Below are positions 6,148-40,667 of a stretch of DNA of 44,488 bases, in pieces. The notes beneath the pieces were generated by a model, which saw only the letters and a list, made by a program, of their open reading frames with translations, ran no database searches and was not told the DNA's origin. The stretch's first letter is position 1, and each line of letters starts with the position of its first letter. This stretch comes from Escherichia phage vB_EcoD_Opt212: the sequence record NC_073055.1; one strand, written 5' to 3'. Both the position numbers and the translations under genes were made by a program.

Positions 6148-6413
6148 TTCGCCAGTCTCCAGTGTTTGCCTACCCGCTCAACGGCAGGCTTTCGGCGTAA
6201 TGTAATACGAATCCCCATTGGTTGCAAGGAAGTCCGCACCCTGAAATCGTGTTGTGCTGCGAACTGGTGCAAGTAGCGAGTCTGCGTCAGTGGCTTTACG
6301 TCATCGCGATAGCACCAGTACACAGAATCCCCCACATTCGCATTCTTAGCCCATATTCGTATGCAATGCAGGGGAATATGCCACGAAAGCTGTTTTGCTC
6401 GCCTACGGCCCAT
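6144..6413 (-). CDS. hypothetical protein
   Basis: 89 aa, AAGGGG RBS, translationally coupled. Confidence 0.45.
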   Translation of the reverse strand: MGRRRAKQLSWHIPLHCIRIWAKNANVGDSVYWCYRDDVKPLTQTRYLHQFAAQHDFRVRTSLQPMGIRITLRRKPAVERVGKHWRLAK

Positions 6414-6728: not shown

Positions 6729-6909
6729 CGTTCAGTCCTCATGTTGGTGTGCAACCAATATTAATCACGCGCATGAAAAAGTTGATCGCTATCTGCTGCA
6801 ACGGCAAACTGCATTTCCCACTCTCCATTATCCAACCCGCATTGGTTGCCTAGTTCATCCGCGACCGCACTTCGCATCATGCTGCCGTGTATTTTGCAAT
6901 CCCCGGATT

Positions 6910-7083
6910 TTATTCAGTCTCAGACGAGGGGGGCCATTGACCCCCGTCTAGTCTGAAAGACTGGGGTGCTGTCCCGCTGTCCCGCTCCTCTGGAAGCCGC
7001 GCCATCCGGGGCGGGACGGGGGTGCTGTCCCGCTTTGTCCCGCCCGCTTTTTGTCCCGCTTTTTGTCCCGCTTACTTTATGCA
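6910..7083. repeat. GTCCCGC-iteron element, copy A
   Basis: 75-bp block identical to 34727..34801, then 6 direct and 1 inverted (T)GTCCCGC copies; overall similar to 34727..34899. Confidence 0.8.
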
Positions 7084-7157
7084 GTTTTATTGCATAACTA
7101 TTCATAATAATCACACTACACGGCAACCAATACGACCAGTTAAAAACACCCAAAATG

Positions 7158-7240
7158 GCAACCAATGCGCGCAAAATTTAATCTTTTAGCGATATGGGAA
7201 TTCCCATATCGGCAACCAATACGCGCAAAATTTAATCTTT
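7158..7240. promoter_or_regulatory. 22-bp perfect palindrome CGATATGGGAATTCCCATATCG (7190..7211) flanked by two ~29-bp direct repeats
   Basis: direct reading; repeats GGCAACCAAT(G/A)CGCGCAAAATTTAATCTTT; second copy overlaps primase stop. Confidence 0.7.
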
Positions 7241-9496
7241 CAGGTCGTCATCGGTCGCAGAAAGCGTGATGGGTATATTCGTTTTGATGACTATATTCGA
7301 CGACCCATAGATGGCCCCGGTGTGCGGATCGGTATAAAAACCTAACACTCCGCGCTCAACCATATCGTCTATTGCCTTCGTAGATGTGCCACCTTTTGCC
7401 AATCCCGCCTGGCGGACAATTGCCGATTTGCTGAATCCGGTATGGTCCGGGTTATCTTCCATCAGTTTTTCCAGTGCCGCATAAAGCACTTTCTCTTTTT
7501 CGTTGCGCGGTCCTGCGGCATTCTCGTCCTTAACCGCGGCCTTGCCAGCCGCCTTCGCCTGTTCTATAGCGAACGGTGCCAGGGCGACCGGTACGAGGTA
7601 GAGAGTCTCGTCGCGTGGCGTGGAGGCAATCGGCTTGACGTCCCATCCGGCAACCACGTCGCCGAAGTCTGGCCCGGTGCTGGTGGACTGGTGCGCCTCG
7701 AACGCTTCTGACTTGCGGAGATCCACCTTCACCTTGCACTTGAGCAGGACGAAGCCACGCGGCGCTTGCTTGATGCCGTTACGTGCCTTTTCGTGATACA
7801 GGTTCAATTGGCCTGGCTGGTTGTCGTCCGGCTGTTCCAGGAAGAACGCAGAATCGACAGCGCCATGCAGCGCGCCGGACCCGCGGGGGGTTCTGCTGCC
7901 GTTTGCACCCTTCGCCGGGTGGTGGATGACGCCCGCACTGCCACCTGTATTTTCCGCGATGGCCTTCAGCGCTTTGACCACTTCACCCATATCGCTGGCG
8001 TTGTTCTCGTCGAACGGTTTAGCATCCGCGGACCGCAACGCAACAGTCTGGTTGAGTGAGTCGAACGCCACCAGGCCAACCGGTTCGCCGTTAGCGGTGC
8101 GGTTGATGAAGCTGATAACTTCACGCAAGCCGGATTTGCTGGTGATATCCCAGCCGCGTGATTGCAGATCGATAATGTGCAGCTTGTCCAGGTCGTGCTC
8201 ATATTTAATCTGCAATGCTTCTTTGCGCTGGTTAGAGGCTTCGCCACCTTCCGCGTCGAAATAGAAGCAATGAGACTGGACGACCTTCGCACCGCCGAAC
8301 GGAATACCAGCGGCAACCGCGCCCATCTGCCCCAGCACGTAGAACGATTTACCGATGTTCGACTCACCCGCCATATACCAGGTTGATTTAAAGTTAATCA
8401 ACCCCTCGATAATCGGGTCGTGCTTACTGAACAGCGCAACCGGCTCGTTATCCAGATCCGCATCGGTGCACACGCCGTATTCTTCGCCGTCGCCAACCGC
8501 ATCCACAATATGTTCATATAAGGATTCGACTTCCTCGTCGTCCAGCCCTGGGAGGATGGCGGCGATTTGCTTACGGGACATGTTGTGCGGCTCGACGTTC
8601 AGGTGGTCCGGTATCCCGATGAGACGTAGCGCCAGGTGCTGGTGTCTGTTCAGTTCCGAGCAACACTCGTTGCCGGTGTGCATACACTTGAAACGGATCT
8701 CGCCATCCTTAACCATGATAGCGGTGGACCCTTCACCACTGTGCAGGTGTTCGTTCGGGCATGGCACTTCATAACCACGACCGGACGACAGCGGTTCGAA
8801 TCCTGCCTGGAAGCACCAGTCCAGAATGCCGTCTGCCACTGCGTCGTCGCCCTGGGTAAGCTCGCGGCGTACTTCCTCTTTTTCCACCCCCAGCTTATCA
8901 GCCAGGCGAAGCAGACGACGGACGCGGGCACGTTTGCCGTAGTGACACTTAACAACCGATTGCTGGTGAGGCAGGTACATAAGGCGGTTTGTGTCTTTCG
9001 TGCAATCGTCGAAGTCCACATCTGACAGGCCCAGTTGGTGTAATAGTGCATACTGGACGCGGCCCAGGTCTTCCGCCGGTACAGGCTTGTCAGTGAGCAC
9101 CAGGAAACGAGCGCAACGCGTGCCGCCTTTCAGCGGGTGGCGGTCGCCGGTAGTGGTGTGGAAGACGTGCTCCAGTCCCGCGTCGATGAACGCCTTACGG
9201 CAGCGGCGCAGGGTGCGGGTGTCGGTGCGGTCAATATCAAAGAACAGGATCGAGCGGTCCACGGCACTGGTCTTGCGGCGTAAGCCGTCACGGGTATAAG
9301 CCACAATACCATCAGCCTTACGCTTGCGGCGCGCATACTCCGCTTTATCTTCCGTCTTGTTGATATGCACCGAGGATATTTCTTTCGCATCATTAATAAA
9401 TTCGAAAAACTCATCGGTGGTCATCTGGAAGTTTTCCGCCCTGGCTTTTTCGCCTTTTTTAGCGGGTCGTGTTACAGCGAATTTAATTAAGCTCAT
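7232..9496 (-). CDS. DNA primase/helicase (primase-polymerase-like N-terminus, P-loop NTPase, C-terminal wHTH)
   Basis: 754 aa; Walker A-like GESNIGKSF; Cys/His cluster; acidic FFDIDRTD segment. Confidence 0.75.
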   Translation of the reverse strand: MSLIKFAVTRPAKKGEKARAENFQMTTDEFFEFINDAKEISSVHINKTEDKAEYARRKRKADGIVAYTRDGLRRKTSAVDRSILFFDIDRTDTRTLRRCRKAFIDAGLEHVFHTTTGDRHPLKGGTRCARFLVLTDKPVPAEDLGRVQYALLHQLGLSDVDFDDCTKDTNRLMYLPHQQSVVKCHYGKRARVRRLLRLADKLGVEKEEVRRELTQGDDAVADGILDWCFQAGFEPLSSGRGYEVPCPNEHLHSGEGSTAIMVKDGEIRFKCMHTGNECCSELNRHQHLALRLIGIPDHLNVEPHNMSRKQIAAILPGLDDEEVESLYEHIVDAVGDGEEYGVCTDADLDNEPVALFSKHDPIIEGLINFKSTWYMAGESNIGKSFYVLGQMGAVAAGIPFGGAKVVQSHCFYFDAEGGEASNQRKEALQIKYEHDLDKLHIIDLQSRGWDITSKSGLREVISFINRTANGEPVGLVAFDSLNQTVALRSADAKPFDENNASDMGEVVKALKAIAENTGGSAGVIHHPAKGANGSRTPRGSGALHGAVDSAFFLEQPDDNQPGQLNLYHEKARNGIKQAPRGFVLLKCKVKVDLRKSEAFEAHQSTSTGPDFGDVVAGWDVKPIASTPRDETLYLVPVALAPFAIEQAKAAGKAAVKDENAAGPRNEKEKVLYAALEKLMEDNPDHTGFSKSAIVRQAGLAKGGTSTKAIDDMVERGVLGFYTDPHTGAIYGSSNIVIKTNIPITLSATDDDLKD

Positions 9497-10242: not shown

Positions 10243-10758
10243 ATGTTTGAGCAAATCGTAAACCTGATCACTCGCGGAGTAGTAGCACTGGAAACCATTG
10301 CAAAGCATTATGAAACCGTTGGCGCTGCCGTTGGTAAACAGGAAGATAAGAAGCCGTCTAAGGCCAAAAAAGAAGTTGTCGAAGATGACGACGATGAAGC
10401 TGAAGACGAAAAACCGGCTAAATCTAAAAAAACACCGGCGAAATGTAAGGCTAAAAAAGAAGTCGTAGAAGATGACGACGACGATGCCGAAGACGAAAAA
10501 CCGGCTAAGTCTAAAAAAGCACCGGCGAAAGGCAAAGGTAAGAAAGATGCCGATCCGCTGGCAGAGATGCGCGACGAAATCAAACAGTATGCCGCGATTA
10601 TTGCCGGTGGTGACGATGACGACGCGAACGACGAATTTGATGATCTGCTGGAAGCGTTCGAAATTAAATCCATCGCCAAGCTGGAAGACGACGACGTTGA
10701 AGACTTCCACAAAGATTTAAAAGAAATCGTCGAAACCTATTTCGAACTGGAAGATTAA
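10243..10758 (+). CDS. acidic/basic tandem-repeat protein
   Basis: 171 aa from ATG with GGAG RBS (track ORF extends upstream without RBS); two ~28-aa repeats KAKKEVVEDDDDEAEDEKPAKSKK; acidic C-terminal half. Confidence 0.6.
   Translation: MFEQIVNLITRGVVALETIAKHYETVGAAVGKQEDKKPSKAKKEVVEDDDDEAEDEKPAKSKKTPAKCKAKKEVVEDDDDDAEDEKPAKSKKAPAKGKGKKDADPLAEMRDEIKQYAAIIAGGDDDDANDEFDDLLEAFEIKSIAKLEDDDVEDFHKDLKEIVETYFELED
10357..10533 (+). repeat. tandem ~84-bp coding repeat (2 copies)
   Basis: near-identical DNA and protein repeats inside 10243..10758. Confidence 0.7.
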
Positions 10759-11058: not shown

Positions 11059-11237
11059 TGAAATTCTTCGTCATGGCAACTTGCCACGAATTAAACGATC
11101 ACACTTCTTTTATTGTTGAAAACACCAACGCAAGCAATTGCTTTGTGGACGCGCAAAATGAAGTTAAGCGCCGAGTCGAAAAAGCGGGCCTGGCTAATGT
11201 GAAATATGTAATTGTCCAGTTTACACGGGTGGAATAA
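11058..11237 (+). CDS. small hypothetical protein (59 aa)
   Basis: start overlaps previous stop; internal ATG of track ORF 10977..11237. Confidence 0.4.
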   Translation: MKFFVMATCHELNDHTSFIVENTNASNCFVDAQNEVKRRVEKAGLANVKYVIVQFTRVE

Positions 11238-12667
11238 TGGCGATTAAACCAAAACGTAAAACGCAATCCGGTAGCAACACGGAACACTCATTACTCGGGC
11301 CGTCCGGTGCTAAAAAATGGATGGGTTGCCCTGCCGCCCTGGTGGTGGAAAAAGATATCCCGAACGAATCCGGGCAAGCGGCGATTAACGGTACGAGTAT
11401 GCACACCGTATCAGAGGTCGTGCTAAACCGCATTATCGCCGGTGAGAAGCTGATAACCGCGAAGACGTATAAAGGGTGCTACGTCGAGAACGAAGGCAAG
11501 GGGCCAGTAAAGGCCCACCCGAAAGCACCGAAAGGCGGCGTACTGGTCAACGACGACATGGTGAAACAGTGCGACGCGTACATCGACCACTGGCGACCGC
11601 TCCTCGAAGTGGCGGAGTTTGTTCAGCTTGAGATGCGCGCCGATCTGACCCGCGTCCTTCACTCAGGCTTCGAGATCGACGGCAACCTGGTTAAGACGTT
11701 CGGTACTGCCGATATGGTTATGGTCATGAAGAAGACCGACGGCACGTACATGCTGATTGTTGGCGACCTGAAGACGGGACGACATAAGGTCGAGGCGAAA
11801 GAAAACAAACAGCTTATGTTGTACGCGCTCGGCCTGCTGCGCAAGCTGAAAACTATGTACGACATTACGACCGTGCGCCTGGTTATCTTCCAGCCGTATT
11901 GCGGCGGGGCGTCGGAGTGGGATATTTCGGTAGAAGCCCTGGAGATATTCGCGAAGTTTGCGTCCAAGCGTGCTATCGCCGCCCTGGAAGCGTACGCCCG
12001 CGGCAAAAAGGGACTCACCCGTGCCGACTTCAGACCGAGCGTTGATGCGTGTCAGTGGTGCCGATTTGCGGATCAGTGTAGCGCCCGCGCTAAGGCCGCA
12101 ATCGACACGATGACCCCACCAACGGCAACAGACGAAGACCTGGGCGACGACGTGAGTATTGCGACAGAGGAAGAATGCGCCAATCACGATCGCAATATGA
12201 CCCGCGAAGCCCGCAAAGCGGCACGACGTGCGAAGCGTGGTAAGAAAGAAGCGGCCCCAGGCGCTATGACCGCCGCAGAACTGCGCAAGGCATATGAAGG
12301 TTTAGACGCAATGCGCCAGCACATCAAGGCTATAGAGTCCGCGGTATTCAAGGCGGTTATGGCTGGCGAAGGCGAATCGCTGGGCCTCAAAATGGTTGCC
12401 GGTAAGGAAGGGATCCGCAAGTGGGCGGACGAAAGCGAAGTGATTGAAATCTTCACGAAGGCCCGGATCAAGCGCGATGTTATGTACAAAGAAACATTAC
12501 TCAGCCCTACTGATGCCGAGAAGGTACTGAAGGACGAGAAGCCGAAAGTGTGGGCAAAGTTGTGTGATAAAATAACGCGCGCACCAGCTAAACCGGTATT
12601 AGCACCCATCGACGACCCGCGCCCTGCGTGGTCTGTAGCTACTGACGAGGACTTAAGCAATGAATAA
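11237..12667 (+). CDS. PD-(D/E)XK nuclease, DUF2800-like with Cas4-type Cys cluster
   Basis: 476 aa; N-terminal HSLLGPSGAKKWMGCP; GDLKTG and QLMLYALG motifs; CQWCRFADQC cysteines. Confidence 0.75.
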   Translation: MAIKPKRKTQSGSNTEHSLLGPSGAKKWMGCPAALVVEKDIPNESGQAAINGTSMHTVSEVVLNRIIAGEKLITAKTYKGCYVENEGKGPVKAHPKAPKGGVLVNDDMVKQCDAYIDHWRPLLEVAEFVQLEMRADLTRVLHSGFEIDGNLVKTFGTADMVMVMKKTDGTYMLIVGDLKTGRHKVEAKENKQLMLYALGLLRKLKTMYDITTVRLVIFQPYCGGASEWDISVEALEIFAKFASKRAIAALEAYARGKKGLTRADFRPSVDACQWCRFADQCSARAKAAIDTMTPPTATDEDLGDDVSIATEEECANHDRNMTREARKAARRAKRGKKEAAPGAMTAAELRKAYEGLDAMRQHIKAIESAVFKAVMAGEGESLGLKMVAGKEGIRKWADESEVIEIFTKARIKRDVMYKETLLSPTDAEKVLKDEKPKVWAKLCDKITRAPAKPVLAPIDDPRPAWSVATDEDLSNE

Positions 12668-12992: not shown

Positions 12993-13775
12993 ATGGCTAA
13001 AGTCAACCTGAAAAATGTGCGCGTATGTTTCCTTAAAATTTGGGAACGTGATACCCCTAAACAGGATGGACAAAAACCGGCATACCGTGCAGTGATTCTC
13101 CTTGATAAAGAAGATCCGCAGGTGGACAAAGTGGAAGCGGCAGCGCGCGCAGTGCTCACCGACAAGCTGAAATCCGAGAAGAATGCTGATAAGTGGATGG
13201 ACCGCCACTACGCCCAGGATTCTAAGGAATGCGCAGTTCGCGACGGTGACGAGCGCGACGAAGTAACCGAAGAATTCGAAGGCATGTTGTACATCAACGC
13301 CAAATCGTTCAAACAGCCGATCATTCAAACGTCACTCGGCGAGAAGCAGACGGAACAAGGTCTGACCGTAGAAGGCGACGAGATCGAAGGCCAGGAGATC
13401 TACTCCGGTTGTTATTGCAATGTGTCCCTGGATATTTGGGCGTGGAACAATACCAACGGCAAGGGTCTCGGGGCTGGCTTGCTGGGTCTGCGATTCCGTG
13501 AAGACGGCGAAGCCTTCGGAGGTGGCGGGTCTTCTTGCTCCGATGAAGACCTGGACAACGACGACGAAGACGAAGCACCGCGCAAGTCCAAAAAGTCAAA
13601 ACGTCGTGATGACGATGATGAAGATGACAAGCCGCGCAAGTCCAAGAAATCCAAGCGCCGCGATGACGACGATGAGGAAGATGAAAAACCTCGCAAACGC
13701 CGCAAGTCCCGCGATGACGAAGATGAGGACGAAGACGACGAAGACGAAGCACCACGTAAACGTCGCCGCCGTTAA
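12993..13775 (+). CDS. DUF2815-like ssDNA-binding protein with charged repeat tail
   Basis: ATG with AGGAA RBS; N-terminus MAKVNLKNVRVCF; C-terminal repeats PRKSKKSKRRDDDDE. Confidence 0.65.
   Translation: MAKVNLKNVRVCFLKIWERDTPKQDGQKPAYRAVILLDKEDPQVDKVEAAARAVLTDKLKSEKNADKWMDRHYAQDSKECAVRDGDERDEVTEEFEGMLYINAKSFKQPIIQTSLGEKQTEQGLTVEGDEIEGQEIYSGCYCNVSLDIWAWNNTNGKGLGAGLLGLRFREDGEAFGGGGSSCSDEDLDNDDEDEAPRKSKKSKRRDDDDEDDKPRKSKKSKRRDDDDEEDEKPRKRRKSRDDEDEDEDDEDEAPRKRRRR
13562..13772 (+). repeat. tandem coding repeats (acidic/basic modules, 3 copies)
   Basis: repeated DDDDEDDKPRKSKKSKRR units at protein and DNA level. Confidence 0.6.
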
Positions 13776-31389: not shown

Positions 31390-32024
31390 CTTACGAATCC
31401 AATAGCAGTCTTAAGGGTGGCGGACACCGTTGCCGTGTAGTGCCCGTTGTCTGTGTACGACAAGCTCGAACGCTCGACCACGAATAAACCTGTTTCGCCA
31501 TCCGGCGCGGTGACAACAAACGGTTTGACGAAGTGCCCGCGAAGGAAGTTGTAAACCAGTTTAGGGTTGCACCACTTGTCAGTAGTCAGTCCGATGAATT
31601 GCACGGGGAACTGTTTCGTTTCGGCGTTCGGGCCGTCCGCGATGTTCTGACCGTAACCGTTACCAAACTGCAATTCCTCGGACCGGAAAGCCAACTGCAC
31701 GTCTCCGCCACCTTGCAATTGCATGTGCCAGTAATAGGGCCATTCGTTTGATCGCGGGTCGTGCGCTTCGATTAGCTCATAAGCTGCACCGGCTTTTGTC
31801 GGTCCGGCCCAGTTATCCGCCAGGGTGATGACGGTGTTAGAGTTGAATGCCGCAATTTTTCCGGTGTAGTCGTTGCCGTCGATGCGGGTAAATACGCGGA
31901 CCTTCCCGATCTCGCTCAAGAACGCGGTTCCCACGCCTGTGATGGTCTTACTTCCCTTAGTTAGTGTGATTGTACCTTGCGCCATAAAAAAGCCCCCACG
32001 TTGTAGTGAGGGCCATTTTATCAT
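31386..32024 (-). CDS. minor tail protein gpM-like
   Basis: 212 aa; ATGA coupling to tape measure and gpL-like genes. Confidence 0.6.
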   Translation of the reverse strand: MIKWPSLQRGGFFMAQGTITLTKGSKTITGVGTAFLSEIGKVRVFTRIDGNDYTGKIAAFNSNTVITLADNWAGPTKAGAAYELIEAHDPRSNEWPYYWHMQLQGGGDVQLAFRSEELQFGNGYGQNIADGPNAETKQFPVQFIGLTTDKWCNPKLVYNFLRGHFVKPFVVTAPDGETGLFVVERSSLSYTDNGHYTATVSATLKTAIGFVR

Positions 32025-34663
32025 CGTTTGTAAAGTACACCACCCGGTTTCGTCGCCTTCACGATCTCGGCCTTGACCGACTCGGTGATTTGCTTTCCGA
32101 ACGCCTGCGCGGTGCGCGGGTCTGGACCGCTAACACTGGTATCCGTCTTACCGGTCCCCATGTTAACGTTGGTCGTTACAATCATTCCCCCGACACCGCC
32201 TGCCGCGGCAACGCCAAGTTTACCGTCTGGCCCGCGCTTAAGCGGCATGATGGCCTCGGGGCCAGCCTCCCCCATCAATCCTGCGCCCTTAGCGAACGCC
32301 TGGACGCCATAACTGAAAAAGGTGGGCTGGCTTACCACTTGCCCCGAATAGGCCGCGAGGTTGCCCCCTGCGTACGCTCCGCCGTCCGCATTCTTAGTGA
32401 GGCCGGAGAAAATAGCGCCGAACAATCCGTTTTTGCCGCCGTCACCGCCGAAAGCGCTAACGATGGACTTGAACGCCTGCGAGGTAGCCAGCTTTATTAA
32501 TTCGCTCAGAATGGACTTAACCATATCTTTTGCGTTCAGCTTGCCAGTCTCGAAAAACTCGTTCATCGTGTCCTGCATAGCGCCGAACGTGAATTTTGTG
32601 AGTGACGTCATCTGCGTATAGCCGTTACCCATTTCATCAACACTATCCTTAAGCCCGCGGCTGAAGCCATCCCATAGCGAGGCGTTAGCACCGGTCTGTG
32701 CTTCCTGCACTTCGCGCAGCTTAGACACCGCCAGATCAATATCGGTATCGTTAGCGCCCACCCGCTTCAGGCGATCAATTAGCTGCAATTCTTCGCGCAG
32801 GTTAGCCGCTTCGCGAGTGGAAAGCGCATATCCCGCCGCGGTGGCTTTTAGCTCGGCGTTCTGGTTCTTGATGAATGCATCGACCTGGGCGTGTGCTTTG
32901 ATCTGCTTCTCTTTCGCGTCCAGCAATTTGGCTTCTTCGACGATCTGCTCGCGTACCGATTTAACCGCCTCGAACGCCGCCGTTTGCTGCTTTTCTGCTG
33001 CCGTGAGTGCGCGCTCCTTGCTCGCGGTGATTAACTGCTCATTATCGGCAATCAGCTTGTTCAGGGACGCTTGCGCGCGTTGCGTGCGGGTCTGCGTCGA
33101 TGCGTTGGCTTCGATCTGCTTTCCAGACTCACGAAGCTGGGCTAATTCGCTTCGCGCGACTTCCAGCATTTTCAGCCCGGCATCGACTCGAACTGCCGCC
33201 GCTTTCTTCGGCGCGGGGTCTTTGTAACGCTCGTTGACCTGCTTCACCGCCTCGGCTAGTTCTTTCTCGTTAATAACACCGCGCTTATTCAGCAAATTTA
33301 GGCGGGCGATCTCGTCGGCTCGCCGCTTCGCGTTGGTTGCGTACTCCTTCTCAAACGCGGCGCGGTCGCGGGCGGCGCGGTTTGCCTCCTCGTTCGCCTT
33401 TGCTGCTTCATCCGCGGCGCTGGCGCTGTCTCGCTCGGCACGGTTGCGAAGGGTGAGCGACGCTACTACCTTTTCCTGGGCGACCAGTTCGCTGTAAAGC
33501 ATGTTAATACGCGCTTTCTGCGCTTCGGTCATCACCCCACCGGCAGCGTTTACCGCCCTCATCTCGGCATAGTACGCCGTGGTCATGCGCTGCAAGGACT
33601 CACGCGCTTTCATCTCGGACTCATTCGAGGACTGCGCGCGGCCCACATCCAGGATGGCATCCCACATAGATTTAGCTGCCGATGTAACTACGTTCATCGA
33701 CCGCTCAAGCGTACCCATGTTGGACTTTACCTCATCGGTCATGCTGGAGAACGACGCAGCGGCTGTTTTGTTAGCCAGAGCAACCGCGTCCGTTTCACGC
33801 CCCATATCTACAAGCGATTGCACCTGCTGGATCTGCGCCTCGGTAACGACATGATACTTATCCGCCAGCGCACGCAGTCCGCCCACTGGGTCGTTCGACA
33901 ATTTTGAGATGGATTCAACCACGTCAGAGATCGGCTGATTAGACGCCTTCGCGAAGTCATTCACAACCTTCGCCAGCGCGCCGAAGTCCGCCCCCGCTTT
34001 CACACCCGCCGCCGCCAGCGCCTGGATTGTGTCACGCGTCTTGCGGAACGACCCGCCCATGCGCTCGGCGTTCTCGGATAGCACCAGGATCTGGTTTGCC
34101 GTTAGGCCGGAAATGTTACCTGACAGCGCCAGCGTCTTGTTAAGCGCTGCGACCTGGTTCTCTGCGCGGGACGTAATTGCTACGCCCACGCCTAACGTTG
34201 CCGTTACCGCAGCAAGGCCGATCCCAACTGGACCGAGGAAGCCAGCAACATAACGCAGAGTGTTACCCAATCCACCGAACGCCCCAGTTAGCTGCGGTAA
34301 CTGCTGAAGCATAACGCGGTGTACCGGCATCCCCATCTCAAGCGTAACTGCGATATCCTGTAACTGGAATGCGGCGTTACGCGAGGCAAAGCCCAGGTTT
34401 TTAGTCGACATGCCTAACCTGTTGGCGAGTCGCTCCTGTTTCGTCATGCCATCGGCGGCGCGCTGCGATTCGTTTGCCAGCTTTTCCATTCCGCCCGCGG
34501 CGTCACTCGTCACCTTTTTGGATTTGCCGAGGGTGTCGTTTAATTTCTTAACCTTGTTTTCTGTGTTCTCGGATTTCTGTGCGAAGGAGTCCAGCACAGT
34601 ATTTGCCGTTCTGATTTGTGCAACATCAGCCTTTAGCGTGATGCCTGCTGCCTGATCTGCCAT
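32021..34663 (-). CDS. tail tape measure protein
   Basis: 880 aa; long Ala/Gln/Glu-rich helical middle; Gly-rich C-terminus; position. Confidence 0.85.
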   Translation of the reverse strand: MADQAAGITLKADVAQIRTANTVLDSFAQKSENTENKVKKLNDTLGKSKKVTSDAAGGMEKLANESQRAADGMTKQERLANRLGMSTKNLGFASRNAAFQLQDIAVTLEMGMPVHRVMLQQLPQLTGAFGGLGNTLRYVAGFLGPVGIGLAAVTATLGVGVAITSRAENQVAALNKTLALSGNISGLTANQILVLSENAERMGGSFRKTRDTIQALAAAGVKAGADFGALAKVVNDFAKASNQPISDVVESISKLSNDPVGGLRALADKYHVVTEAQIQQVQSLVDMGRETDAVALANKTAAASFSSMTDEVKSNMGTLERSMNVVTSAAKSMWDAILDVGRAQSSNESEMKARESLQRMTTAYYAEMRAVNAAGGVMTEAQKARINMLYSELVAQEKVVASLTLRNRAERDSASAADEAAKANEEANRAARDRAAFEKEYATNAKRRADEIARLNLLNKRGVINEKELAEAVKQVNERYKDPAPKKAAAVRVDAGLKMLEVARSELAQLRESGKQIEANASTQTRTQRAQASLNKLIADNEQLITASKERALTAAEKQQTAAFEAVKSVREQIVEEAKLLDAKEKQIKAHAQVDAFIKNQNAELKATAAGYALSTREAANLREELQLIDRLKRVGANDTDIDLAVSKLREVQEAQTGANASLWDGFSRGLKDSVDEMGNGYTQMTSLTKFTFGAMQDTMNEFFETGKLNAKDMVKSILSELIKLATSQAFKSIVSAFGGDGGKNGLFGAIFSGLTKNADGGAYAGGNLAAYSGQVVSQPTFFSYGVQAFAKGAGLMGEAGPEAIMPLKRGPDGKLGVAAAGGVGGMIVTTNVNMGTGKTDTSVSGPDPRTAQAFGKQITESVKAEIVKATKPGGVLYKR

Positions 34664-34726
34664 TATGCAGTCCCCTTTTTTATGCAGTTGCCGATGGATA
34701 TTGTATCAGCGATTTCAAAACAAACC

Positions 34727-34899
34727 TTATTCAGTCTCAGACGAGGGGGGCCATTGACCCCCGTCTAGTCTGAAAGACTGGGGTGCTGTCCCGCTGTCCC
34801 GATCGGCTGAAAACCGCGGCAGCACTGGCGGGGACGGGGTGCTGTCCCGTTTTGTCCCGCCCCTTGTTTGTCCCGCTTTCTGTCCCGCTTACTTTATGC
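34727..34899. repeat. GTCCCGC-iteron element, copy B
   Basis: first 75 bp identical to 6910..6984; similar iteron array. Confidence 0.8.
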
Positions 34900-34924
34900 A
34901 ATAAAACTGCATAGGTATGCACAT

Positions 34925-35043
34925 TTACAGGGCGTGACAAAACGGGACGTCCCGCCTGTCCCGCTTTGAGTTTATGCAATGAAAGTGATTAGATATGCGG
35001 TTTTACAGAGGCGGGACAAAACGGGACGTCCCGCCTGTCCCGC
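34925..35043. repeat. two tandem ~78-bp units each with 12-bp palindrome CGGGACGTCCCG
   Basis: palindromes at about 34943..34954 and 35022..35033 with flanking GTCCCGC/GCGGGAC. Confidence 0.75.
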
Positions 35044-35047
35044 TTCA

Positions 35048-35724
35048 TTATGCGGGGTTCTGCTGCGCCATCTCATCAAGCGCGATTCGTTCCATTAGCT
35101 TGATATCTTTAAACGCGCGCTGCTCGTTTTCGATACCGTGCATCTTAAATAGCCACTCCAGCACGCCGTAGTCGATGCCGTATGCGCCACCAAAACCGGT
35201 GCGCCATTGCGTGGAGCAATCTGTGAAGACTGCGACTATCTTCGCGTTGTCAGGCCATAGCGCAACAGGCGGACAAACATCTTCAGGGGCCGCACCCCAT
35301 AAACTCGCGGCTAAATCTTCGGAGGGTGGCGGCGGGCCATAAAAGCGTCGCGCCGCCTCAATTAGTTTTTTTCACGCAATCCCATCAGTTCAAGATAGTA
35401 CGACGTGTGGAACACCCCGAACGCGCGTGGGTAGTTGACCACCAGGCGGCGGACGTTCTCCGCGTTAAATTCGTCCGGCAGATTCCAGCCTTCTGCGACG
35501 TGCATGATGGCCTCGACCATAACGTTAAAGCCGTCCGGGTCATTGTCGTCATATTCCGACAGCTTTCGTTCGGTGTCCTGCATGGTTTGCGAAAATTCGT
35601 CGATCGGGCGGTGGCGGACGGTAAACGTCATCTTGCCCGGTTCGTTCTCACCTGGGCGCGGGATCTCAATCGGCAGCTTAAAGGTCGGCTTAGGGTCAAG
35701 TGTAAAGAGTGGTGCTTTAGCCAT
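35048..35724 (-). CDS. tail assembly chaperone GT (-1 frameshift product)
   Basis: A_AAA_AAC slippery heptamer at about 35365..35371, 2 codons before the G stop; -1 frame stays open about 105 codons to stop at 35048. Confidence 0.55.
35362..35724 (-). CDS. tail assembly chaperone G
   Basis: 120 aa from ATG with GGAG RBS (track ORF starts at upstream TTG); between major tail and tape measure genes. Confidence 0.65.
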   Translation of the reverse strand: MAKAPLFTLDPKPTFKLPIEIPRPGENEPGKMTFTVRHRPIDEFSQTMQDTERKLSEYDDNDPDGFNVMVEAIMHVAEGWNLPDEFNAENVRRLVVNYPRAFGVFHTSYYLELMGLREKN

Positions 35725-35740
35725 TGTAGTATTCTCCAAT

Positions 35741-39816: not shown

Positions 39817-40518
39817 CTACTCGTCGCCCATCTTAGCGATGATTTCACCAGCCTGTTTCGTAAGGTCAGTGATACCGAAGCTGTGGCCCATCGTGATTTT
39901 CGACTTCACATCTTCGACAACCTGCGTCGGTTTGCTAGGCGCGCCGCCTGCTGGCGTGCCAGCCAGGACGGACGCAAAATCGGCGTTATTACGGAACTCT
40001 TTTTCAAGTTCTTCCATAGTCAGCGCGGACGGTTTGCCATCCTGCAAGACACGCACTTTCAAGCTGCCGTCTTCGCCGTCTTCCAGCGTCAGGCGGTCCA
40101 TTACGTGGCGTTGCATGATGCCCGCATTCTTACCGAACAGCTTCGACGCCAGGTCTTTGGCAGCGCTGCCGATGGTTAGATCGTGGATCTGCTTGCGGTA
40201 GGCTTCGATTTTTCCCGATGTGTCTGCTTCGTGTTTCGCAAACTTATCTTTCCAGGACTTGTCGATCGCTTCGAGGTCGCCATTTTTGCGCGCGGCGGCT
40301 TCCTCTTTCTCTTTCGCAAGGCGCTCAGCTTCGGCGCGGCGTTCAGCTTCTGCTTTCTTCTCGCTCACCAGCTTCGCGTTGTTGTCTTTCAGACCCTTGA
40401 TTTCCGCCTGTACTTCTTCTGCGGTCATGAACGTTGATTTATACCCGTCGCCATCGGCAACAAAAAGCGCCTTCATACCTTCCGGCAACGCGTCATATTC
40501 TGCTTTAGTAAGTTTCAT
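39817..40518 (-). CDS. scaffolding protein
   Basis: 233 aa from ATG with AGGGGGA RBS; charged coiled-coil-like sequence (AEAERRAEAERLAKEKEEAAARK); directly upstream of capsid gene. Confidence 0.65.
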   Translation of the reverse strand: MKLTKAEYDALPEGMKALFVADGDGYKSTFMTAEEVQAEIKGLKDNNAKLVSEKKAEAERRAEAERLAKEKEEAAARKNGDLEAIDKSWKDKFAKHEADTSGKIEAYRKQIHDLTIGSAAKDLASKLFGKNAGIMQRHVMDRLTLEDGEDGSLKVRVLQDGKPSALTMEELEKEFRNNADFASVLAGTPAGGAPSKPTQVVEDVKSKITMGHSFGITDLTKQAGEIIAKMGDE

Positions 40519-40608
40519 GCTATCCCCCTGGGATTGTGGCAGAGCAGGCCACCCGCTCGACTTCACGCTTCTAATATTATCAGCGATAAAAATAATCGCA
40601 AAATTCGC

Positions 40609-40638
40609 TTGCAATCCGCGTATTGGTTGCACTATATT
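40609..40638 (+). promoter_or_regulatory. candidate promoter TTGCAA-N18-TATATT with tandem ATTGGTTGCAC motifs
   Basis: direct reading; upstream of plus-strand island. Confidence 0.4.
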
Positions 40639-40667
40639 GGTTGCACACCAACAACGAGGACACAAAA

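Follow-up and report, generated by a model that had tools for sequence, protein, structure and literature searches.

A duplicated array of GCGGGAC-type sites in the tail operon of Escherichia phage vB_EcoD_Opt212: a possible second copy of an origin region

Escherichia phage vB_EcoD_Opt212 (NC_073055.1) has a genome of 44,488 bp – referred to here as the window – which is a complete genome of the genus Dhillonvirus (the HK578/SO-1-like group). Between its genes for the tail assembly chaperone G/GT and the tape measure protein (TMP) lies a non-coding insert of 384 bp, a dense and conserved array of 13 GCGGGAC-type sites that is paralogous to an array located 3′ of the gene for a replicative helicase-primase. 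Judged from its sequence, the insert is on balance probably a duplicated and expanded iteron-type origin, or initiator-binding array, placed in the tail operon, a reading that we hold with modest confidence. Dhillonviruses are virulent coliphages, are among the most frequently isolated of coliphages, and are used in the BASEL collection, phage therapy and engineering. Around the gap, identity to phage JLBYU37 reaches 99.7%, and there are matches in 157 phage records.

Structure of the insert between the G/GT and tape measure genes

The gap spans exactly 34664–35047, its boundaries being set by the ends of the TMP open reading frame (ORF; 32021–34663, minus strand, from the ORF map and annotation) and by the stop codon of GT in the −1 frame at 35048–35050. 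The ORF map and frame check thus bear out the 384-bp non-coding insert that an earlier note, made from the sequence alone, had placed between these genes. G/GT occupies 35048–35739 on the minus strand (profile match and frame check); the G chaperone (35362–35739, minus strand) matches Phage_TAC_4 (E 1.7e-23), and the −1 frame is open from the slippery sequence GAAAAAAAC (~35372) to the stop codon. That GT and TMP are normally adjacent, as the earlier note had stated, agrees with the relatives L153 and VSiA, in which the two genes abut with no gap; the proposed comparison of this junction also turned up two more distant relatives, L149 and L152, in which a terminator and reverse-strand genes intervene.

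Along the minus strand, the direction of tail-gene transcription, the gap comprises two 79-bp tandem units, a 195-bp core, a GC-rich compound hairpin and about 60 bp of locus-specific DNA. The earlier note had described two tandem units of ~78 bp; two units there are, with a period of 79 bp and 2.1 copies at 34880–35045 (Tandem Repeats Finder). Unit 2, proximal to GT (34969–35047, minus strand), reads GCGGGAC-ag-GCGGGAC/GTCCCG-tttt-GTCCCGC, followed by ~45 bp of AT-rich sequence ending in TGCATAAA. Unit 1 (34890–34968, minus strand), proximal to TMP, has the same layout and varies more among relatives than any other block (on average 80% identical to the window); the flanking GCGGGAC and GTCCCGC half-sites are as previously described apart from one in this unit, which is degenerate (GTCACGC). 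The palindrome CGGGACGTCCCG, correctly assigned to each unit, occurs at 34943 and 35022 only, against a genome-wide expectation of 0.19.

The core element, copy B (34727–34921, minus strand), is 87% identical to copy A at 6910–7104, in agreement with the earlier placement of a second copy of an iteron element in the gap. An AT-rich palindrome, TATGCA-N8-TGCATA (34894–34913), adjoins the iterons. The core iteron block itself (34788–34889, minus strand) consists of four direct GCGGGAC sites with start-to-start distances of 12, 16 and 10, one inverted degenerate site, a conserved spacer of 28 bp, and two direct sites 8 bp apart; the CGGGAC cores are near-invariant and the spacers variable. The GC-rich compound hairpin, CAGTCTTTCAGACTAGACGGGGG-loop-CCCCCCTCGTCTGAGACTG (34732–34780, −28.4 kcal/mol), has a stem that is kept and a loop that varies, and falls within the most conserved block of the gap (34725–34779, 55 bp, 97%). 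The last ~60 bp (34664–34724) carry the TMP ribosome-binding site (RBS) and an extended −10 promoter-like sequence, TGATACAAT (34700–34708, minus strand, read by eye), which lies ~37 bp upstream of the TMP ATG and outside the duplicated core. This segment may be a separate module, a putative promoter and RBS that would restart TMP expression after the interruption. The surroundings of the RBS (34664–34690, CTGCATAAAAAAGGGGACTGCATAATG) resemble the repeated module TGCATAAA-N5-GCGGGAC, and the tandem duplication may therefore have reached the start of the TMP gene.

Of the occurrences of the hexamer CGGGAC/GTCCCG, 13 fall in the gap, seven in copy A and 15 in the 43.9 kb outside these regions, giving a density in the gap of ~34 per kb against a background of 0.34 per kb; the maximum in any 400-bp window of 200 Markov simulations was four. 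GTCCCGC is found 23 times (8.5 expected), a count reached in none of 100 shuffles, and all four genomic occurrences of TTTATGCA are inside the gap or the copy A region. Multiple short repeats in both direct and inverted orientation, as expected of an iteron origin, are thus present in the gap (13 sites in 384 bp), and a protein-binding site in an unusual place, one of the possibilities raised earlier, is probable for a non-coding insert built of repeats.

Two predicted ORFs, 6920–7174 and 34737–34979 (84 and 80 residues), overlap the repeats, and the earlier note had ascribed their common C-terminus to repetition of the DNA. The alignment of relatives agrees, as 1-nt and 11-nt insertions/deletions fall inside both ORFs and the site patterns are rearranged; they are therefore not genes. 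Translation of the sequence in a conserved frame by related phages, which the earlier note had named as telling against its proposal, is not what the relatives show. These frameshifting changes, together with inconsistent ORF calls by annotators, rule out a coding sequence.

Two copies, separately maintained

Copy A (6910–7104, minus strand) lies ~130 bp downstream of the helicase-primase stop codon. Repeat comparison identifies this as the ancestral position, with the single arrays of VSiA, L048 and L156 in the same place. Its iterons are flanked by an AT-rich block (7072–7111, GC 0.20) that is a candidate DNA-unwinding element and has the lowest GC content (rank 1) of all 40-bp windows in the 44.5-kb genome. 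In copy B the AT tracts, as read from the sequence, are two stretches of ~45 bp, each about one-third G+C and each with inverted sites on one side and direct sites on the other; within the gap, the 40-bp window lowest in GC (30% G+C, 0.28 percentile) is near the TMP promoter. An AT-rich segment therefore adjoins the iterons in both copies, more weakly in copy B than in copy A.

The gap is covered over at least 80% of its length in 150 of the 157 Dhillonvirus records, and IMG/VR contigs carry the hairpin signature at two copies per genome. Identity to the window is 93% in site cores and 87% in non-site columns, and the hairpin block is 97% identical against 91% for flanking coding sequence. Orthologous copies are 86–87% identical and paralogous copies 75–77%, which indicates that the duplication is old and that each copy has been maintained separately; both copies, by these comparisons, are under selection. 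Concerted evolution of A and B was considered and rejected, since the within-genome excess is slight (77% versus 75%) and each copy evolves largely on its own. Searches of 5,426 complete Escherichia coli genomes and 72,556 plasmids gave no match to the element, which rules out a host- or plasmid-derived repeat.

The GenBank record of Sodalis phage SO-1 (NC_013600) already marks the same element, as two regions called A and B, at 11214–11597 (the GT–TMP gap) and at 40178–40657 (after the helicase-primase gene), and describes the two as related to each other and as containing direct, inverted and palindromic repeats. That annotation is purely descriptive, and we found no analysis of Dhillonvirus repeats, origins or termini in the literature; the repeat regions have thus been noted already, and an origin reading, if correct, would be new for Dhillonvirus.

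The centre of the AT-rich palindrome, TATGCA[ATAAAACT]GCATA, is found in both orientations (7078–7097 and 34894–34913). The loop in copy A takes either orientation depending on the phage, and in the window the reverse complement of the A palindrome is exactly the palindrome of copy B, which suggests recurrent inversion of the loop between short inverted arms, perhaps through cruciform formation or template switching. Copy A is preceded at 7149–7243 by 54-bp tandem units, each with a ATTGGTTGCC site and varying in number among relatives; one holds a 20-bp perfect palindrome, GATATGGGAATTCCCATATC.

Arrays in related phages and the helicase-primase

The helicase-primase gene (7232–9496, minus strand) encodes 754 residues that match AAA_25, a RepA-like core (E 2e-19), and PHROG 3228, 'replicative helicase-primase'; we propose the protein as the cognate binder of the repeats. 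Relatives with a single array – the metagenomic phage L048, Cornellvirus phages VSiA and FSL SP-038, and L156 (metagenomic, P0004) – have it directly after this gene, as is copy A, which is where an iteron origin would be expected relative to its initiator gene. The repeat word differs by lineage. L048, whose helicase-primase is 65% identical (tblastn, C-terminal 300 residues), shares GCGGGAC with Dhillonvirus and has the same hairpin stem with a different loop; VSiA and FSL SP-038 (43–44% identity) have GGGGGAG; L156 (49% over the C-terminal region) has CGGACA; and L155 (metagenomic, P0006; 54% over the C-terminal region) has CGCCCCG flanking a long AT-rich segment. L048, VSiA and L156 have in common an order of AT-rich box (GAATAGTTATGCA), three to five direct repeats, one or two inverted repeats, a spacer of ~28 bp, two or three further repeats, a small hairpin and a large GC hairpin, and the hairpins of VSiA and L156 are equivalent to that of the window while differing in sequence. 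L155 has the same AT-rich box, as GAATAACTATGCA.

Changes of repeat word are accompanied by changes in the C-terminal segment of the helicase-primase. Between L156 and VSiA, which have different words, the protein is 82% identical over residues 1–657 and 37% identical over the next 90 C-terminal residues; between Dhillonvirus and L048, which share a word, the values over the same two parts are 70% and 52%. Co-variation of iteron and initiator DNA-binding segment, another expectation for an iteron origin, is thus seen for four words in four to five lineages. The variable segment has a winged-helix pattern and is encoded at ~7292–7519, and its putative recognition helix begins TSTK in Dhillonvirus, TNTT in L048, SRRR in L156 and DRYK in VSiA. 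An AlphaFold model of residues 640–754, built from a two-sequence alignment, has an H-H-H-beta-beta winged-helix topology with mean pLDDT 57, and the top Foldseek matches are winged helices of MarR, Rio2, histone H1 and Cdc6/ORC (E 0.04–0.4); the winged-helix identity of the C-terminus is suggestive only. Pfam and NCBIfam have nothing in the N-terminal segment of the protein.

The small helix-turn-helix (HTH) gene upstream of the helicase-primase belongs to another family (XRE-type) in VSiA, L155, L156 and L157, with no detectable similarity to the Dhillonvirus HTH protein in these four. As the HTH family changes while the array layout is kept, the layout travels with the helicase-primase and not with the small regulator. 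The position of the home copy directly after the helicase-primase gene, and the co-change of the repeat word with the C-terminus of its product, point to replication rather than to regulation of tail genes.

Full-length helicase-primase homologues all end in a conserved acidic tail (DDDLKD-like). The C-terminal 230 residues (7235–7924) have matches at E ≤0.001 in 16 clusters among 1.84 billion representative proteins, and the putative initiator family appears rare.

Comparison with known origins and a proposed mechanism

Among the closest known systems are the origins of Staphylococcus aureus pathogenicity islands (SaPI) and related phage-inducible chromosomal islands (PICI), which have short (5–7 bp) GC-rich iterons in 6–12 or more copies and both orientations, with an AT-rich segment, and whose home copy lies immediately downstream of a primase/helicase gene, as here. 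SaPI Rep/PriRep recognise 6–12 short iterons that lie immediately downstream of rep and flank an AT-rich region, using a C-terminal winged helix matched to their own iterons, and in SaPI5 primase and Rep are fused (PMC9371898); in the window the winged helix is predicted. The SaPI/PICI initiators differ in having a Rep-type helicase core where the present protein is RepA/DnaB-like (AAA_25). SaPIs are also satellites, whereas this is a virulent coliphage with a second, expanded copy in its tail operon, a conserved GC hairpin attached, and binding that is only proposed.

Bacillus phage SPP1 is a lytic siphovirus of ~44 kb that, like the window, has two regions of direct repeats with an AT-rich element. 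Its two similarly built origins are oriL, in the initiator gene, and oriR, which interrupts late structural genes, and gp38 binds both; oriR is bracketed by transcription signals and has been proposed to stall forks and trigger a switch to concatemer synthesis (PMC6316719). SPP1 oriR, like the gap, is a non-coding segment that breaks a conserved order of late structural genes, and the window likewise has one such region at the putative initiator gene and one among late structural genes. SPP1 differs in using a separate gp38, loader and DnaB-type helicase, in having unrelated sequences, and in that oriL is inside the gene and not after it.

Satellite phage P4 needs two separate iteron regions in cis, and one of these, crr, consists of two direct repeat units carrying iterons, which the two 79-bp units of the window resemble; the P4 iteron is TGTTCACC. 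P4 alpha is a single polypeptide with primase, helicase and a C-terminal winged helix, the last of which binds the origin repeats (PMC4234260). It differs from the present protein in having a Toprim primase and a superfamily 3 helicase, and P4 has no sequence similarity to the window.

In plasmid RSF1010 iterons are combined with ssi hairpins, and in pRN1 a stem-loop origin lies 3′ of an operon of repressor and primase-helicase (PMC4234260). RSF1010 oriV (RepC iterons, RepA helicase, RepB′ primase, ssiA/ssiB) shares with the window a RepA-type helicase core. RSF1010 and pRN1 further share the succession of iterons, GC- and AT-rich segments, and then hairpins, which are used for priming in those systems, and the position of the origin downstream of a replication operon beginning with a small repressor gene (PMC4234260). 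The three RSF1010 functions differ in being separate proteins, and a priming role for the hairpin of the window would be pure inference.

If the insert derives from an origin, copy B may be read as a second copy of the origin region, expanded by two extra modules that each comprise an AT-rich stretch and four sites. The predicted C-terminal winged helix of the helicase-primase would bind the repeats; the protein would oligomerise on the phased sites, melt the adjoining AT-rich block, load itself and prime, with phage DNA polymerase I extending. The main origin would be copy A, which has the genome's most AT-rich block, whereas copy B, with more sites and a weaker AT tract, might fire as a second origin, assist as an auxiliary cis-site like P4 crr, or block forks as an initiator-bound barrier like SPP1 oriR.

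A more specific form of this proposal is speculative and rather doubtful: a hitherto undescribed all-in-one initiator with an N-terminal primase, a RepA/DnaB-type (superfamily 4-like) helicase and a C-terminal winged helix reading iterons of 6–7 bp, together with a stronger array in the tail operon that would act as fork barrier or late origin, couple late transcription to the concatemer switch, and split the operon at the GT–TMP junction. Such a protein would be akin to RSF1010 RepB′, RepA and RepC fused in one chain, and the helicase-primase family does join a RepA-type helicase core, a primase and a putative origin-binding domain. Were the origin reading true, copies A and B would both be candidate origins, GCGGGAC, CGGACA and GGGGGAG would form a candidate initiator–iteron code, and these phages would offer a Gram-negative counterpart of the SPP1 dual-origin puzzle. 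The GT–TMP gap would then not be a neutral insertion site for genome engineers, and the short-read assembly breaks at this place, as well as the inconsistent annotation of small ORFs and terminators, would be explained.

Evidence weighing against an origin

Several observations weigh against interpreting the insert as an origin. The gap is not immediately 3′ of the putative initiator gene, as an iteron origin is expected to be, and lies 27.8 kb away in the tail operon; copy B thus is not beside that gene, and its AT tracts are only moderately AT-rich. No downstream array is present after the helicase-primase homologues of L154, L157, Jerseyvirus and Bas76, and in Jerseyvirus/Kagunavirus-like relatives a reverse-strand regulator follows the gene with no comparable downstream array. 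From the Jerseyvirus, Kagunavirus-like, L154 and L157 cases, the association of array and helicase-primase is not universal in the family. Cumulative GC skew follows gene orientation and has no feature at copy A or copy B, and so is uninformative about an origin.

The identity of the binding protein is open to similar objections. The co-variation extends to four or five lineages only, and other proteins have diverged as well: the terminase small subunit (TerS) is 33% identical between Dhillonvirus and VSiA, and the small regulators of L156 and VSiA are just 37% identical, having diverged alongside the iteron switch. On the argument from co-variation alone, the small regulators may remain candidate binders. 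The winged-helix model has low confidence, with no fold match at E 0.001, and Pfam and NCBIfam have nothing in the C-terminal segment. The gap may also be mainly a transcription-unit boundary that tolerates insertions, as L149 and L152 indicate.

Alternative explanations

The last of these points leads to the main rival, which is unlikely: the insert would be a transcription-unit boundary or regulatory array, in which palindromes terminate or attenuate transcription after GT, and GCGGGAC sites bind a transcription factor, such as the 109-residue HTH protein, that controls a promoter for TMP and the distal tail genes and sets the GT:TMP ratio or its timing. At the GT–TMP junctions of L149 (4460–4960) and L152 (4430–5214) a canonical intrinsic terminator stands right after T, followed by one to three reverse-strand genes (morons), and in L149 a promoter/operator sequence then precedes TMP. 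From these junctions, and from the abutting genes of L153 and VSiA, this site in the lineage is a permissive insertion hotspot and a transcription-unit boundary. Copy A is also at a boundary, with the early genes (HTH, helicase-primase) on one side and the downstream cluster of small genes and lysis genes on the other, and the small HTH protein has a sigma70 region 4-like fold.

Transcription signals within the gap itself point both ways. HK578 and some other GenBank records annotate a rho-independent terminator there, at the palindrome, and CGGGACGUCCCGUUUU forms a small hairpin followed by a U-run; on the minus strand, however, there is only a 4–5-bp CGGG/CCCG stem before UUUU. A terminator scan returned four sites, all on the plus strand, and no terminator-like site on the coding (minus) strand, where the large hairpins lack the U-run that defines a rho-independent terminator and the sequence after the large hairpin differs between copies A and B. 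The sequence GCTGATACAAT, which holds the promoter-like TGATACAAT upstream of TMP, is invariant in 16 of 16 aligned relatives, while a promoter consensus scan of the gap did not call TGATACAAT.

The arrangement of the sites fits regulation poorly. A sigma70 activator or repressor does not typically use thirteen plus seven sites over 150–330 bp, placed 40–200 bp ahead of separate promoters; the motif found inside promoters genome-wide is a different one, ATTGGTTGC; and VSiA and L156 keep the array layout despite small HTH proteins of another family. The switch for late tail genes suggested by the earlier note is accordingly left as a minority possibility, with the invariant TGATACAAT separate from the array and downstream of it, and no canonical terminator on the coding strand. 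Part of the insert could act in transcription without conflict with an origin, and terminator or promoter modules may coexist with one, as at SPP1 oriR.

It is improbable that the insert is a selfish or neutral repeat, a duplication like a miniature inverted-repeat transposable element, lying at a permissive junction and having no function of its own. The GT–TMP junction does attract insertions, morons among them, in related phages, and the element does duplicate sequence from elsewhere in the genome. It is, however, kept in ~150 genomes, its site cores and hairpin are better conserved than neighbouring coding sequence, it has neither terminal inverted repeats nor target-site duplications, and it is limited to two copies per genome and absent from the E. 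coli genomes and plasmids searched.

A packaging site, pac or cos-like, bound through its repeats by TerS, has very little probability. Terminase small subunits bind repeated boxes elsewhere (lambda cosB, SPP1 pacL/pacR, P1 pac), and TerS, given its divergence between Dhillonvirus and VSiA, may co-vary with the repeat word. Known pac and cos sites are in or beside terS, whereas both copies are kilobases distant from it (1397–1969); it would be strange for a 44.5-kb genome to have two pac sites of the same orientation at a distance of 27.8 kb; and the relatives with a single copy have their array beside the helicase-primase gene, not the packaging genes. Several GenBank records start or end in or near the gap, among them that of phage CHD5UKE2 (NC_073059, L018), which opens inside it and has ends that overlap by ~130 bp. 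These ends look like an assembly break at the A/B repeat, of which such an overlap is typical, rather than a true, mapped terminus.

Equally hard to credit is a structured non-coding RNA, whether a small RNA or a cis-acting mRNA element, which the earlier note had also offered. Folding is very strong (z −7.5), and hairpins are conserved while their loops vary, but the opposite strand folds nearly as well (z −6.3), as expected of inverted repeats at the DNA level, and a strand-specific RNA structure is thereby ruled out. The sole Rfam 15 match, on both strands, is to mir-4433, which scores 22 bits where the gathering score is 77; nothing rises above noise, and a known RNA family is ruled out too. 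What is conserved, moreover, is words of 6–7 bp in either orientation and not paired columns, the sites stand in different arrangements from one relative to another, and the scan found no promoter/terminator pair bracketing a discrete RNA. The partition-like site of the earlier note (a sopC/parS-like centromere) is rejected: Dhillonviruses are virulent, no partition genes are listed in the curated annotation of a relative with 95% identity, and there is no plasmid match.

Genome context and other repeats

Minus-strand genes span ~32 kb, in the order 109-residue HTH protein, 754-residue helicase-primase, small genes, lysis, terminase, head and tail; replication genes are on the plus strand at 10–22 kb. 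Tandem repeats of 87 bp and 54 bp at 10359–10532 and 13542–13759 encode acidic, lysine-rich stretches such as DDDDEAEDEKPAK, in a 231-residue protein without known function and in an Enc34-type single-stranded DNA-binding protein.

The second motif, ATTGGTTGC, occurs 14 times (0.5 expected) and always between genes, at 6217, 6751, 6841, 7123, 7158, 7212, 10031, 16739, 19180, 19197, 21097, 24518, 40622 and 40636. At 40598–40653 it occupies the 17-bp spacer and the start site of a good sigma70-type promoter, TTGCAA-17-CTATAT, and it looks like the operator of a phage regulator. L048 and L155 keep the motif, and VSiA and L156 have TTGGCTG instead. At ~6729–6765 the window is without a 38-bp segment that all aligned relatives have; there, ahead of the first gene beyond copy A, the segment makes up a sigma70-type promoter (TTGCAT-17-TATATT) accompanied by two ATTGGTTGCA sites.

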